Shown here in pieces: positions 58,595-63,357 of a stretch of DNA of 64,000 nt. The DNA comes from Shigella phage MK-13: sequence record MK509462. One strand, 5' to 3'. The notes beneath the pieces are model-generated. The model did not search any database, was not told the DNA's origin, and saw only the letters and a list, made by a program, of their open reading frames with translations. How positions within the stretch are numbered: the first letter of the stretch is position 1; every line of letters begins with the position of its first letter. A program made the translations under genes and the position numbers.

Positions 58595-59113
58595 TTAGAT
58601 GGTGCTCATGTAGAGAGGAACCACCTGCTCTGCGATCAGAACGATCTCATTAATGGTGAAGTCGCCACCATAAGAATACAGCTTCATCTGCGCCCCGTTG
58701 GTTGCGAGGTTCCCTGCCTTGTCAACACTGAAGAACGTGATAAAGGAGAGAACGTCTGGGGGCGGTACGCTGGAATCTCGACTCTTAGACAATTGGTTGC
58801 CTGTAGAGCCAACAAAGTCCAGCAACATCGTCCTGTTGGATGTCGAACCAGACCATGTTCCGATGATGTTCACCTTGACAGGCAAGATAGAATCGACCGG
58901 AAATGCATGGAACTTATGGTCGGACAATTTGAAGAAAGGGGCTAACCCAGTCACAGACGAAGGATGCGGTGTTTTACCGTCCAACAACGTTAAGAGATCA
59001 ACACCAGTCGCTCCAGCAGGCAAAGCCGCTGTGAGGCCAGAGAACCTCACTTCAACTTTGATGCGGTGCGTCTGGAGCATATTGCCCAGGTAAGGAGAAG
59101 GTAGAATGGCCAT
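58595..59113 (-). CDS. Hypothetical protein (late-transcribed, possibly virion-associated)
   Basis: 172 aa; immediately downstream of a gene with a TATAAATA late promoter. Confidence 0.4.
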   Translation of the reverse strand: MAILPSPYLGNMLQTHRIKVEVRFSGLTAALPAGATGVDLLTLLDGKTPHPSSVTGLAPFFKLSDHKFHAFPVDSILPVKVNIIGTWSGSTSNRTMLLDFVGSTGNQLSKSRDSSVPPPDVLSFITFFSVDKAGNLATNGAQMKLYSYGGDFTINEIVLIAEQVVPLYMSTI

Positions 59114-59121
59114 GGCTCCTC

Positions 59122-59357
59122 CTAGGAAACGATAACAGAGGAAGCAGAAGACGCGCTCTTAACCCACCCAACAGTCGGCGGGGTGAGCACAACGATATTA
59201 CCTTGATAGAGAGTATGAGCCGGAGAGGAAGCACTCGGCGTGGTTGGACTATCACACAAATACACAGAACCTTGAGTCACTTGTATTGTTTTCAATGATG
59301 TGCCATCTGAGACTTGCGTCCATGTACTTGCATCCAGAGTAAACTTGGCTGTTGCCA
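59122..59357 (-). CDS. Hypothetical small protein (late gene)
   Basis: ORF 59122..59376; start placed at the ATG preceded by AGGAGG; TATAAATA about 30 nt upstream. Confidence 0.4.
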
Positions 59358-59386
59358 TGATACACCTCCTGTACAAGTTCAGATCT

Positions 59387-59394
59387 ATTTATAC
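59387..59394 (-). promoter_or_regulatory. T4-type late promoter core TATAAATA (minus strand)
   Basis: Plus-strand tatttata = TATAAATA on minus, followed by an AGGAGG RBS and ATG. Confidence 0.5.
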
Positions 59395-59786
59395 CGGACA
59401 AAAGAAAGCCGGATATCCTTATCCGGCTATACCACATCGATGGGATGGGTGGAAAGACTACACACTTTGCACTGGTACTGCCCTATGGGAGAGCGCGTCA
59501 GGAGTCGAACCTGAAGTCGTCGGCGTAGAGAAAGCTATTTGCATTTCACTATCCTCGCCGCGATTTTCTTAACTTCCTAAACACCCGATTACGAGAGAGT
59601 CGGCATGCACACCTTCTAACTCTTCAGGAAGTCACGCCCACAATTTGGTGCCCGTTAGAGGGGTTGAACCTCAGCACTCTGGTGATCAACCCAGAGAGTC
59701 GCGCCTCATCCGTTTGTTAGTCAGATTTGGGTCTTGCAAAACCTTAACCGACCGTCTACAAACAGACTGCTTGACCGAGCGTAATT

Positions 59787-59870
59787 TGGAGCGGGAGAGC
59801 AGGATTCGAACCTGTCCAGTGATCGTCGCCGATGATCAGTCGGCTACTGTCCAACCCCTATGGCTCCCGC
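59787..59870 (-). tRNA. tRNA-like gene, atypical (anticodon unresolved; GAT if the central hairpin is the anticodon arm)
   Basis: Hand-folded: 7-bp acceptor gcgggag/ctcccgc, T-loop TTCGAAT, encoded CCA, 5-bp hairpin gccga-ctGATca-tcggc; one extra nucleotide between T-stem and acceptor and a long variable region. Confidence 0.35.
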
Positions 59871-60093
59871 GAAATAAGGACGGGCTTCACACCCGATTGA
59901 GCATTTGATCTGCCGTAGCCCAACTCCCCGCGCTTCTCAGCGCCGATTGGTTAACTGGCGACCAGTGCCTTCTGGTTCGATCTCCTGGAACTTTACAGGC
60001 TTTGCGCCCGACCATTTCTGGAAGTTGGGGCATCGTTTCCGATGTGGAGTCACCCCATTTTATACACAGCGTGGCTGCAACGCTTACTGTGTT

Positions 60094-60177
60094 TGGTGTG
60101 AGTGGATGGATTCGAACCACCGCGCTGTTACGGGGAGATTTACAGTCTCCTGCATTCGACCGCTCTGCCACACTCAC
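60094..60177 (-). tRNA. tRNA-Tyr (anticodon GTA), class II with long variable arm
   Basis: Hand-folded: acceptor gtgagtg/cactcac, anticodon arm ggaga-ctGTAaa-tctcc, T-arm ggtgg-TTCGAAT-ccatc, encoded CCA; anticodon loop matches E. coli tRNA-Tyr from memory. Confidence 0.7.
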
Positions 60178-60187
60178 ATTTGGTCTA

Positions 60188-60251
60188 CCGCTGCGTGCTG
60201 GGCCACGCTCGAGGACATCGGCCATCCTTCCTCAGCTAATCCACGCAGCGG
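60188..60251 (-). other. Long hairpin (10-bp inverted repeat ccgctgcgtg / cacgcagcgg, about 44-nt loop) adjacent to tRNA-Tyr
   Basis: Inverted repeat seen directly; possible processing signal or small RNA. Confidence 0.35.
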
Positions 60252-60434
60252 CAGATTTGTTTCAGAGTGTCCGGTGTAGCAACCCGTGAGGTGCGCACTA
60301 CTGTAGCCTCTACACTCTGAATTTGGTGGGCGTTACTATCGTCGTCTTCGGATTCCGTTCGGCTATTGGACAGAGGCTTGGAGCTTGTCGGTCGCGTACT
60401 TCGTGCCTATTCACTTTCGTTCACACCCATTGTC

Positions 60435-60510
60435 TGGCGACGATGACAGGACTTGAACCTGTGACATATGGATTAACAGTCCACCGTTCTACCGACTGAA
60501 CTACATCGTC
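60435..60510 (-). tRNA. tRNA-Asn (anticodon GTT)
   Basis: Hand-folded canonical cloverleaf: acceptor gacgatg/catcgtc, D-arm gttc/gaac, anticodon loop ctGTTaa, T-arm acagg-TTCAAGT-cctgt, encoded CCA; near-identical core to E. coli tRNA-Asn from memory. Confidence 0.75.
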
Positions 60511-60939
60511 TTTATCCGTGCTTGTTCGCTTCAATCGCCCTTAATTGGGCATCAGCGTCAGCTTTGGTGTCATGTGTACCAAGAACCTTCGTCTTGGTGT
60601 GGTCAAGGACAACCCACTTGTCACCTCGCTTTTCAACAAACTCGACAATCTCTTTGTTGTCGGTAGCGAGGCCATCCCACTCAGCAATAAAATCACCGAA
60701 CGTTTTCATCATACTCACCAATTGTTTATTGAACAACTGGTTTATTTAGGTGCTCCCAAGGCGGTATTTGAATCCCGCGATCCCATCACACCTGCCGTAG
60801 ACCGGAGCTTGCTGGCAGTCCAACAATGTTTGGCGGGGTTTGAGGATTTTCACCTCACCTGCTGGGTTTGGCCGCCCAGCCGTTCTCTATGAGGATTCGC
60901 TGTCCGGACAACTATCCCTTAAACTATCGCCCCTCAATT

Positions 60940-61019
60940 TGGTTGGAGGAGAAGGATTCGAACCTTCAACGGCTGCCGCCATCCCCTCAGGGAATGTCTA
61001 CCCCTTCCATCATCCTCCA
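60940..61019 (-). tRNA. tRNA, isotype uncertain (possible anticodon TGA)
   Basis: Perfect 7-bp acceptor tggagga/tcctcca, perfect T-arm gaagg-TTCGAAT-ccttc, encoded CCA; D and anticodon arms fold ambiguously by hand. Confidence 0.45.
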
Positions 61020-62540
61020 AATTATTGTGTGACCAACCAAGGACTGTCAACCCTTTATCCCGTTTGTGCATGATCAGTTCATGCAGGCCTGTTTGTGCGC
61101 CTCACAGCATGCGCTTCTGTTGGTCATTGGCTTGCACCGTAGCCTCGCAACAGGCGTTTATTTTTCCAGGGCTTTCCACTTGCAAGTCTTAACCATACAG
61201 GGATACGGGCTTGCAAGATCGGGTTGGTCACAACTCTGATGGCTCTCGCCTTTCCGCTCATTTACCTGTCATCCACAACCGATATACATTATGGAATCTT
61301 GAGAGCCATCAGAGTTGCAGCCATGCTACAACCCGCACCTGGGAGAGGACAAGGTGATCGACCCCAGATACTTGCCTGCTTTCGCCAGGCCAAACGGTTT
61401 AGCGTCGGGTGCCTCCCGATGCCATTATCATGGCGAATAATGGCGTTGACTTATCCTCAGGTGGTTCTTGCCACTCAACCCTTGCGCTTAGCAGGATTCA
61501 CTAAACAACCCGCACTTCAGTGTCTTCGTCACACTTCAGCACTTGTCCTCTAACGTTCAGACCAAACGAGGCTGGCCGATAGCAAACTTGTTCTCTGGTA
61601 TTTTGTGACCCGCCAGAACGGTATGGGTTGATAGCCCGAACTCAGTTTGTATCGTAGAGTGATCACACTTGTCAGGATGATCACTATTTTGCGAACTCGA
61701 GAATACTGCACCTGTCTCGGGTTTCCCCTTAGTACGGTCACTCATTGTTCGAAGCAGTCAGGGAGCTACCCTTGATGACCGCGCTTATCTTGAGCTGTTC
61801 CTGGTGCCCACCAGTGTCCGGAATGTATAGGCATCGCAGCTTTACAAGGCAATGGTCTATTTCACCCATCGCTCTCCCAAGTTCGCAAAGTAGAGTTCTC
61901 TGAACTTCAATGACCCCTCATCTTGTACTATCGCCGCCGGGAACGTTCACCATGTGAATCAACCCTTGGGTTAAGTTCAACGTCCAGAGGACTCTACTTT
62001 GCGTTGTGGGGGCTGACCCCCACACGGCTACTTCTTTAACAGGGATTGCCAGCCCTGGGGATTCCACTGTTTAAGGCTTCATCCCATAACGCCTTAGGCG
62101 TGTTCTCAAATTATTGAGCTTGCTTAACTGCAAACTGATGCGCTGTGAGACACATCTTTGAGGGCACTCAGTGTGCAACAGGCTCCGATATTTCATAGGG
62201 CATTACTGCCTCGGATTTGAGTTGCCTTTCTCCTGAAACTCCATGCAGTCTCGCGTCTGACGCGGAATGCCCTCAAAGATGTGGAGCCGCTTTAGGGAGT
62301 CGAACCCAAGTGATTGGCCAGCGCTGACCTCACACCCCACCTGATATGTTCACCGGAACTTGCCTACTCAGGAGCTTATCCCCTTTTGACAATCAGGTAT
62401 AGCGGCATTGTAAATCTGTTTGGGCGGAGGCCTGTAACCAGCAGGCATCTCCTAGCGAACTTCTGAACACCAGGCTCGGGTGCGCCTGTCGCTGTGGTGA
62501 GTTCGACTTAACTCCTGAGCGGTTATTCCCAGTCGTCGAC

Positions 62541-62624
62541 ACCCCCCAAACAGATTTTAGTCGGCGGGAGCTTATTAATCACACCCCCCAAACAGATTTT
62601 AGTCGGCGGGAGCTTATTAATCAC
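62541..62624. repeat. Perfect tandem duplication of a 42-bp unit (accccccaaacagattttagtcggcgggagcttattaatcac x2)
   Basis: Two identical adjacent copies; a partial inverted copy (aaatctgtttggg) lies about 120 nt upstream. Confidence 0.7.
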
Positions 62625-63357
62625 ACCCTCCCGCCTATTGTAGTGCGCCGAATTTTGTTATGAGGAGTCGGAAGACCTCACTGACTTATAGGCTATTACG
62701 CCGCCATCAGAACTACATCATCGTTTGCATTTATTTTTGTGGTCTGTTTCTTAAAACCCGCAAAGTCACGCACAACGAAAACGAAAACCTGTTTGAGCAC
62801 AAGACGCCATGTCCTGGGTTCACATCGAAGTGTTTGTCTAATGCCCAAACAGCTTTTCGTTCAATGGGTTAACTATACTCTGCAACCCGTTATTGACAAA
62901 ACTTTAAATCTGCCGGAACTTACGCATCCGGCCTCGCCTGTTGGTGCTCCTTCGAATCCGGGAAGATCAGCAGGAACTATGAATCAAGTTAATTCAACCA
63001 ACAGGAACCTTTGTGTTGCCCTTTGACGCAACATTATGAACCCTCTGTGAAGATCCATAATGTTGTCGGCGTGATGGAACCTGGCAGATCCGTCCTCCCC
63101 TATATGTTGGTGTCGACTTGCCAACGGGGTGCTCTCAAGCATCTGAGCTAATCACGCTACAACAGGGAGTTTCGTTCTCCGACGGTCAGTGCGTCCACTA
63201 ACACCATGCAAGGTGGATGTCACGCCTCTATTCACGCATGCCCCTGAGACTGGGATTAGTGAGGTCGGCTTTAGATGCCTAACTCAATGCGCTGTTCGCC
63301 TCACGTTTAATACTTTACCACAGCCCAGCTAATTTGAAAAGTCCTCTCCTCTTTGAG

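Follow-up and report, generated by a model that had tools for sequence, protein, structure and literature searches.

Conserved tRNA-like RNA elements between the tRNA genes of Shigella phage MK-13

What fills the space between the tRNA genes of this phage? The question is raised by a 64-kb stretch of DNA from Shigella phage MK-13 (MK509462), here called the window, whose positions are used as coordinates throughout. A prior inspection of the letters alone, the sequence-only reading, had pointed to a minus-strand tRNA cluster with two canonical and two atypical tRNAs, two T-arm-like hairpins lacking a matching acceptor strand, and structured spacers of 250-400 nucleotides (nt). The locus makes up the distal two-thirds of an Agtrevirus (Ackermannviridae) tRNA operon. 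We put at about 65% the probability that this operon comprises two working tRNAs, one small protein and a head-to-tail chain of at least six conserved, structured RNAs that do not decode and would be released as small RNAs. Bacteriophage T4 provides the known kind, and we regard the array as its Ackermannviridae variant with a chain of tRNA-like non-coding RNAs (ncRNAs).

The region 59300-62500 is 97% identical to the corresponding DNA of Shigella phages Ag3 and Gloob (Agtrevirus, Ackermannviridae), and its recognisable relatives are found in approximately 300 Ackermannviridae records, including those of Kuttervirus, Taipeivirus, Limestonevirus and other genera. In the records inspected, and in about 250 Ackermannviridae records altogether, no RNA is annotated on the tRNA-like RNA elements (TLEs), the module S-RNA or the hairpin modules described here, and our search of the literature on Ackermannviridae found no transcriptomics or ncRNA descriptions of relevance.

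Read 5' to 3' along the minus strand, on which all features described below are placed, the array opens with an atypical tRNA-like element (odd1), an AAUUGA linker, TLE-D, a conserved stretch at 60737-60830, a small open reading frame (ORF) and tRNA-Asn. A GACAAU linker then leads to TLE-C, two long hairpins (modD and modE), tRNA-Tyr and S-RNA. The last part consists of a second atypical element (odd2), an AAUUAC linker, TLE-A, an AAUUGU linker, TLE-B and a terminator. Each of TLE-A to TLE-D is enclosed by an acceptor-like stem. S-RNA and modE have a minihelix or hairpin at the 3' end, modD consists of a hairpin alone, and a 3' NCCA or near variant is present on all non-decoding RNAs except modD. 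Most elements end in NCCA followed by a short A/U-rich linker, usually of 6 nt. The sequence CCAAATT occurs in six minus-strand copies in the window, four of them at predicted 3' ends of elements. The structures are conserved, with pairs that covary, and among relatives the elements are distributed like cassettes.

Canonical tRNAs, TLE-B and its likeness to T4 rnaC

ARAGORN called four genes and no more in the window, each on the minus strand and with coordinates identical to those of the sequence-only reading, whose minus-strand cluster was thereby borne out. Among the four calls, only tRNA-Tyr(GUA) (60094-60177; canonical type II; 57.3 bits) and tRNA-Asn(GUU) (60435-60510; canonical; 76.6 bits) passed the Rfam tRNA model RF00005 (gathering score 29 bits), and both have an encoded CCA. 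The sequence-only reading had staked its cluster on these two genes, and both were found. Its division into two canonical and two atypical genes also agreed with our results, as the remaining two calls reached only sub-threshold matches to tRNA-Sec (gathering score 47 bits). No transfer-messenger RNA (tmRNA) was called by ARAGORN in the window, and a search of 58800-62200 with Rfam at E-values up to 10 gave no match to tmRNA, YrlA, GOLLD or ROOL; the only matches were sub-threshold ones to tRNA-Sec and STnc100, and chance microRNA matches on long hairpins.

Concerning the two T-arm-like hairpins, both proved real, as they are present across genera with their pairs preserved: at 59498-59514 by compensatory changes, and at 59658-59672 by a single change from A-U to G-U. 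The view that they lack an acceptor strand did not hold, since for both the 5' strand of an acceptor was found 125-145 nt upstream. According to the predicted folds, the supposed orphans are the T-arms of two large tRNA-like RNAs, TLE-B (154 nt) and TLE-A (135 nt).

TLE-B (59486-59639), which includes the first of these T-arms, is predicted to form a four-way junction. Directly after the T-arm (UCAGG-UUCGACU-CCUGA), CGCGCUC (59491-59497) pairs with GGGCGUG (59633-59639) in a covarying acceptor stem of 7 base pairs (bp); the place of the D and anticodon arms is taken by two long arms, and the tail is UCCCA. Support for pairs was expressed as the percentage of alignment cells that are paired and as the number of pairs changed on both sides, and was compared with a control in which the partners were slid. 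In an alignment of 12 distinct sequences from three genera (A1), 96.5% of the cells in the 43 pairs of TLE-B were paired (43-45% when slid), and 13 pairs had changed on both sides (0-3 when slid), including pairs in the acceptor stem (C-G to U-A), both arms and the T stem. The conserved G-U pairs fix the strand of the RNA as minus. The covariance model of TLE-B, built from A1, scored 162-193 bits in Kuttervirus and Taipeivirus, as against 10-27 bits on ordinary tRNAs. A metagenome scan with the TLE-B pattern returned one Agtrevirus contig and two contigs without a match to the model.

The tRNA region of T4 ends at its 3' side with rnaD (species 2) and rnaC (species 1), separated by a 6-nt AAAUUA linker. 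TLE-B is likewise the last element before the terminator and lies 6 nt (AAUUGU) after TLE-A. When the TLE-B model was applied to the 5-kb T4 locus, its best match was rnaC, aligned from end to end through the linker, acceptor, arm 1, A-rich junction, arm 2 and T-arm. The consensus fold of rnaC from T4, EcS1 and UFV01, with 11 compensatory pairs, has the same four-way topology as TLE-B. Both RNAs are thus the terminal gene of a phage tRNA operon preceded by a 6-nt linker of the AAUUAU type, and both form a four-way junction closed by a 7-bp acceptor-like stem. In both, the first arm (60-70 nt) follows the acceptor stem with no nucleotide in between, an A-rich junction (8-9 nt) then leads to a second hairpin arm, and a 5-bp T-arm with the loop UUCGAAU or UUCGAYU directly abuts the 3' strand of the acceptor. 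Neither has an anticodon loop, and both are more conserved than the surrounding genes.

On the other hand, we detected no sequence similarity between the two outside the T-arm. TLE-B is 154 nt long and rnaC 139 nt; the acceptor stem contains two G-U pairs in TLE-B as against two conserved U-U mismatches in rnaC; arm 2 of TLE-B is about twice as long as that of rnaC; the tail is UCCCA in TLE-B and UACAA in T4 rnaC; and the phages belong to different families, Ackermannviridae and Straboviridae. We examined TLE-B as a sequence homologue of rnaC and rejected this, as nhmmer aligned only the T-arm (E-value 0.057) and the TLE-B model, at 22.5 bits on rnaC, scored no better than on ordinary tRNAs (21-26 bits) and so could not separate rnaC from them. 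Because of this failure in sequence and profile searches, we regard TLE-B as rnaC-like and not as a proven member: it looks like, and sits like, the Ackermannviridae counterpart of T4 rnaC in predicted architecture and position. The likeness extends to the neighbouring gene in that rnaD lies immediately upstream of rnaC, as TLE-A does of TLE-B, and the 3' end of T4 rnaD (AACGGCGCACCAAAUUA; AACGGCGCACCAAAUU) is close to those of TLE-A (AACGGGCACCAAAUUG) and TLE-C (AACGCCCACCAAAUUC). TLE-A has a T-arm, whereas rnaD has none; we considered TLE-A as a homologue of rnaD and rejected it, as MAFFT aligned the 3' end only.

Structured modules and flanking signals

TLE-A (59646-59780) is a 135-nt tRNA-like RNA that includes the second T-arm (59658-59672). 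Its closing stem consists of GCUCG (59776-59780) and CGGGC, followed by A and CCA, with UAA between the T-arm and CGGGC. Inside lie a long arm, the hairpin CUCUGG-GUUGAUCA-CCAGAG and the T-like arm GAGG-UUCAACC-CCUC. Its 41 pairs have 95.8% of cells paired (37-51% when slid), three of them with compensatory changes. TLE-A is present in Kuttervirus, Taipeivirus and Limestonevirus and absent from Ag3. TLE-D (60831-60933; 103 nt) resembles a cloverleaf, has three arms, ends in GCCA and is closed by GGGG/CCCC or GGCG/CGCC; 97.7% of its cells are paired (31-50% when slid), with three compensatory pairs, and in isolation its minimum free energy fold is the cloverleaf. In TLE-C (60324-60428; 105 nt), the acceptor-like stem GGGUGU(G)/(A)ACGCCC is followed by A and CCA, and every substitution in it preserves pairing (for example U-G to U-A and U-A to U-G). 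Inside this stem, TLE-C has a highly conserved sequence but only weak structure, with one hairpin that covaries.

S-RNA (59876-60093) is a highly conserved structured module of 218 nt. At its 3' end a minihelix (CGGGU-loop-GCCCG) is followed by UCCA in most relatives and by UCCU in the window. As many as 99% of cells are paired (29-36% when slid), with three compensatory pairs, and the loop of one hairpin alternates between UGAGAA and the UNCG tetraloops UACG, UGCG and UUCG. In a collection of bacterial genomes, the S-RNA motif was found on a single contig of 607 nt (NZ_JAALLN010000140.1, from an assembly of Flavobacterium poyangense). This contig also carries TLE-B (171 bits with the model) and is therefore probably Agtrevirus phage DNA contaminating the bacterial assembly. 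The hairpins modD (60261-60321) and modE (60181-60255), two long conserved hairpins within 60181-60321, gave a fold z-score of -2.7 and are separately placed modules in Taipeivirus; modE ends in ACCA, 3 nt before tRNA-Tyr. Identities to Kuttervirus and Taipeivirus were 91-97% for S-RNA, 93-95% for modD and modE, 90-94% for TLE-D and 87-89% for TLE-A, while those of the flanking protein-coding sequences, at 68-83%, were below several of the RNA modules.

The structured spacers of the sequence-only reading were thus borne out as conserved, structured modules and not filler. Its picture of spacers of 250-400 nt between the tRNAs was correct as to structure and needs amending in that the intervals are not empty: they are filled with discrete conserved elements that abut the tRNAs. 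Its suggestion that degenerate tRNAs or small RNAs may be present as well fits the conserved structured elements found here. On the whole it is partly supported, its observation being largely right and its interpretation in need of revision. We also considered that the spacers might be coding, and excluded this because of indels of 1 and 2 nt within conserved blocks. The protein-coding component is the small ORF at 60515-60709, which encodes 65 amino acids (74 from a TTG start at 60736) and matches phrog_3684 with an E-value of 1.8e-25; its match to DUF2188 is sub-threshold only. Relatives of this ORF are found within tRNA clusters of unrelated phages, one of them on a 350-kb contig (L019) with 19 ARAGORN tRNA genes in 7.9 kb.

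The array is flanked by recognisable signals. A sigma-70-like promoter, TTGACA-18-AATAAT, which agrees with the consensus at 11 of 12 positions, is present at 61021-61050 and kept in all relatives. Its -10 hexamer ends 2 nt before odd1, and as the predicted start approximately 7 nt past the -10 would truncate odd1, transcription from further upstream would be needed too. At the other end, an intrinsic terminator (59407-59428), with a 9-bp stem followed by UUUCUUUUGU, closes the RNA operon and is kept with compensatory changes in relatives. Just downstream of the terminator, and upstream of an ORF starting at 59376, the T4 late-promoter consensus TATAAATA is found at 59386-59393; it corresponds to a 'putative late promoter' annotated in LIMEstone1.

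Approximately 1.85 kb upstream of the array (61020-62870) contain no annotated gene in Ag3, and parts of this DNA are conserved across genera. Long inverted repeats are seen at 61231-61317, 61884-62003 and 62151-62283. The direct repeat ACACCCCCCAAACAGATTTT occurs at 62539 and 62581, and around 62423 there is a possible further tRNA-like 3' end, GCCUG-CUGGUUA-CAGGC followed by CUCCGCCCAAAC. The same DNA also includes, outside the array under study, a divergent RNA resembling STnc100, a prophage-borne small RNA related to PasD and present in E. coli and Salmonella. The match to RF02076 (61397-61506, the element probably extending to about 61320-61546) scored 33.4 bits with an E-value of 1e-5, below the gathering score of 47 bits, and covered model positions 30-148 only. 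The homologous sites in two Taipeivirus loci (L004 4925-5138 and L005 4240-4453) scored 48.7 bits over the full model length and passed the gathering score. A compensatory change is seen in the closing helix, UUUAGUG/CGCUAAA in the window and UUUGGUG/CACCAAA in L005. The closing helix and two motifs, GUGAAUCC and CGGGAGGCACCCG, are common to the window element and STnc100/PasD (RF02076); the window element differs from the STnc100 of lambdoid prophages in residing in a virulent myovirus.

Atypical elements and cassette exchange

The two remaining ARAGORN calls are odd1 (60940-61019; 80 nt; 'Ser TGA') and odd2 (59787-59870; 84 nt; 'Ile GAT'). Both have the features of the 3' half of a tRNA, namely a 7-bp acceptor, a 5-bp T stem, a UUCRANY T-loop and a 3' NCCA. 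In odd1 the acceptor is UGGAGGA/UCCUCCA, the T-arm, GAAGG-UUCGAAU-CCUUC, is perfect and the tail is ACCA; in odd2 they are GCGGGAG/CUCCCGC, (A)CAGG-UUCGAAU-CCUG(C), with the first T pair mismatched, and UCCA. Neither was reported by RF00005, and their best matches in the Rfam clan were to tRNA-Sec, at 24.5 bits for odd1 and 20.9 bits for odd2. No D stem of 3-4 bp could be placed in register in either. In the ARAGORN register the loop of odd1 is CCUGAGG, which places C and not U at position 33, and an alternative fold of this element is without any anticodon loop. The hairpin loop of odd2 is CUGAUCA, with C at position 37, and its discriminator is U73. The UGAUCA of this loop is shared with TLE-A, and was considered as a kissing-loop signal; the idea was rejected because TGATCA is common throughout the genome (38 copies in 64 kb, with no significant regional enrichment).

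Among database phages odd1 is found only in Ag3 and EspM4VN, with 100% identity. Full-length copies of odd2 are present in 45 phage records, several of which annotate tRNA-Ile, and a further 27 records match positions 1-37 only. Among the eight loci compared odd2 varies at three positions only, and SeF6a adds a fourth; at position 72 the T-stem partner may be C, U or A, so that the first T pair varies freely. In Det7 (L133 501-547), the one read of these 27, only 47 nt of odd2 are left, as a deletion between two CTG repeats has removed the hairpin and the T-arm; the 26 other Kuttervirus records that match positions 1-37 only probably share this deletion. A search of IMG/VR with an 18-mer of odd1 gave a single chance match (L032), and that with a 15-mer of odd2 gave 81 matches, of which the three on contigs of Ackermannviridae genome size (L072, L097 and L101) were read.

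The odd1 slot, between the promoter-like sequence and TLE-D (60934-61019), is a hypervariable cassette site (compared in L002, L003, L006, L008, L009, L010 and L016). It is empty in P46FS4 and LIMEstone1, holds a canonical tRNA-Met in Kuttervirus, and in other relatives contains one of three different structured elements or an ORF with tRNA-Met. In pSal-SNUABM-02 the slot carries a 73-nt tRNA-like RNA that was missed by ARAGORN and has a 3-nt loop in the place of the anticodon loop. A module swap is also seen between the window (59646-59786) and Ag3 (L001 2751-3031), where tRNA-Ser(GCU) directly follows odd2 in Ag3 and TLE-A does so in the window. A tRNA-Ile(GAU) gene is altered in several relatives. 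In P46FS4, pSal-SNUABM-02, Det7 and SeF6a its 17-nt anticodon arm has been swapped for a 30-nt hairpin, with the acceptor, D and T arms kept (L010 4856-4944, L008 2912-3000, L133 643-731 and L132 580-668, compared with L002 2705-2780). This is a direct example of a tRNA turned into a non-decoding tRNA-like RNA. Some records give it as tRNA-Pro, others as 'tRNA-OTHER / pseudo tRNA with possible 15 bp intron', and the call made by ARAGORN is 'tRNA-???'.

Do odd1 and odd2 decode? They might be a working tRNA-Ser(UGA) and tRNA-Ile(GAU) with unusual cloverleaves, as in GenBank and in the paper on EspM4VN, which counts both as tRNAs (PMC7283392). Both are called by ARAGORN, and both combine a perfect 7-bp acceptor with a canonical T-loop (GGUUCGAAUCC) and a CCA that is encoded; in odd2 a 5-bp stem carries a loop of 7 nt, and U33 is present; odd1 is annotated as tRNA-Ser in Ag3, odd2 as tRNA-Ile in CBA120 and several others; and functional irregular tRNAs do exist, the allo-tRNAs being an example (PMC5389517). 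We nevertheless consider a decoding role quite unlikely, taking into account the scores under the Rfam thresholds, the missing D stems, and the C33 and alternative fold of odd1. The identity elements also point away from it. E. coli isoleucyl-tRNA synthetase depends on t6A37 and A73, against the C37 and U73 of odd2, and seryl-tRNA synthetase requires a long variable arm and prefers G73, against a variable arm of only 3 bp and A73 in odd1. To this are added the free variation of the first T pair of odd2, the loss of its T-arm in Det7 with the 26 records matching positions 1-37 only, the restriction of odd1 to two database phages, and the label 'Undet' given to odd1 by tRNAscan-SE. Judged from their sequences, odd1 and odd2 are most probably tRNA-like cassettes without a decoding role.

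Interpretation of the array

As for how the array may operate, we infer the expression, processing and function of its RNAs along the following lines. The array would be transcribed together with the tRNAs, and the tRNA-like ends would recruit the host tRNA-maturation machinery, each acceptor stem being cut by RNase P at its 5' end. RNase E would cleave the A/U-rich linkers, after which 3' trimming and CCA repair would follow. Each element would thereby be set free as a stable small RNA, and the 'bodies' that are not tRNA may serve as protein-binding or decoy RNAs in infection. The minimal substrate of RNase P is an acceptor/T-arm minihelix with NCCA, and in tRNA precursors of E. coli RNase E cleaves in A/U-rich linkers 3' of the CCA. 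From these requirements the array is expected to mature as a polycistronic tRNA precursor.

Several points weigh against a chain of released, non-decoding RNAs. The ends of the RNAs are predicted from sequence. Covariation is strong for TLE-B only, TLE-A, TLE-D and S-RNA being mostly invariant, and the structures of these three were drawn from the same alignments that were later used for the pair counts. Fold z-scores are weak for all elements (-0.9 to -2.7) and uninformative, with real tRNAs in the same range, and the interior of TLE-C, at +0.6, is not convincingly structured. The conservation of the modules could partly reflect recent horizontal exchange instead of selection. The failure to link TLE-B to rnaC by sequence, described above, counts here as well. 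As odd1 shows no sequence variation, its fold is a prediction from one invariant sequence, and the losses of odd2 in Det7 and the 26 similar records fit dispensability or decay.

These losses lead to the possibility that tRNA pseudogenes in decay and scars of recombination, without a function of their own, account for the atypical elements, the supposedly orphan T-arms and the spacers. The tRNA complement is strongly mosaic among relatives, homing endonuclease genes (HNH or other) occur in or near the cluster of some of them, odd2 survives in Det7 as a deletion remnant, with the first 37 nt alone matched in the other records, odd1 is restricted to a very narrow lineage, and one neighbour was annotated as a 'pseudo tRNA' by the authors of Det7. 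For odd1 and odd2 alone, pseudogene decay is plausible. For the array as a whole it is unlikely, since 96-99% of predicted pairs are kept through compensatory changes across three genera, with 13 covarying pairs in TLE-B, and conservation exceeds that of the neighbouring protein genes. Alternatively, the modules might act as DNA, that is as recombination or homing sites for cassette exchange, as promoters or as a replication-related region: module boundaries coincide with points of cassette replacement, homing endonuclease genes are nearby in relatives, a consensus sigma-70-like promoter is present within the array, and S-RNA contains a late-promoter-like motif, TATAAAAT. We find this very unlikely, because the G-U pairs and the one-sided changes to A-U or G-C are sensible only for an RNA of the minus strand, the exchange of UNCG tetraloops is a signature of RNA, and the NCCA ends and abutting elements are arranged as genes are in tRNA precursors. 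A further alternative takes the array as a modular set of cassettes for at least eight ncRNAs of the same class as T4 species 1, all mimicking tRNA, hijacking host tRNA-processing enzymes for their maturation and acting as decoys or sponges for host factors that read the acceptor, T-arm and CCA end. Candidate targets may be toxins of defence systems that act on the 3' ends of tRNAs by modification or cleavage, and also RNase P, EF-Tu and the CCA-adding enzyme; such a role for the array in general seems improbable to us.

We return to two working tRNAs, a small protein and a chain of non-decoding RNAs, and compare this arrangement with known systems. Like ordinary phage tRNA clusters (T4, T5 and other Ackermannviridae), the array is confined to one strand and closely packed, with variable isoacceptors and with small ORFs and homing endonucleases interspersed. 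Unlike them, it contains only two decoding tRNAs among approximately ten RNA elements, and most of its 1.6 kb consists of expanded tRNA-like RNAs without annotation in the records inspected. Polycistrons of irregular tRNAs, the allo-tRNAs, have been described, also in phages, and some are probably unused in translation (Mukai et al. 2017, PMC5389517). Odd1 and odd2 resemble them in being non-canonical cloverleaves that surface as sub-threshold matches to tRNA-Sec; they lack the allo-tRNA hallmarks of 8/4 or 9/3 acceptor/T stems, a D stem that is long and capped by a tetraloop, and a long variable arm. An assignment of the two as allo-tRNAs or tRNA-Sec-like tRNAs, with 8/4, 9/3 or 8/5 acceptor/T stems, was rejected on finding U-C (odd1) and C-U (odd2) at the eighth acceptor pair and no long D stem. 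The TLEs are far larger than any allo-tRNA. Another tRNA-mimicking ncRNA is YrlA, a bacterial Y RNA-like molecule (PMC4201824). It shares with the TLEs a tRNA-like module of acceptor and T-arm. In YrlA the tRNA-like part lies inside the molecule and the Ro-binding stem is made by the RNA ends, whereas the ends of the TLEs form the acceptor stem.

Phage records treat this region as a few tRNAs and empty intergenic DNA, and some, the EspM4VN paper among them, count the defective odd1 and odd2 toward codon supply. The tRNA counts of phages for therapy and biocontrol (CBA120, Det7, LIMEstone and relatives of Ag3) should exclude calls made by ARAGORN alone. As TLE-B shares the architecture of T4 species 1, and several other elements its tRNA-like ends, the array provides a covariation-rich data set spanning multiple genera. 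A role as decoys, if true, would provide a testable function for a class of phage RNA that has been without one since the 1970s. To judge from our results, tRNA-like ends may be a general phage device that yields stable small RNAs via host tRNA maturation.

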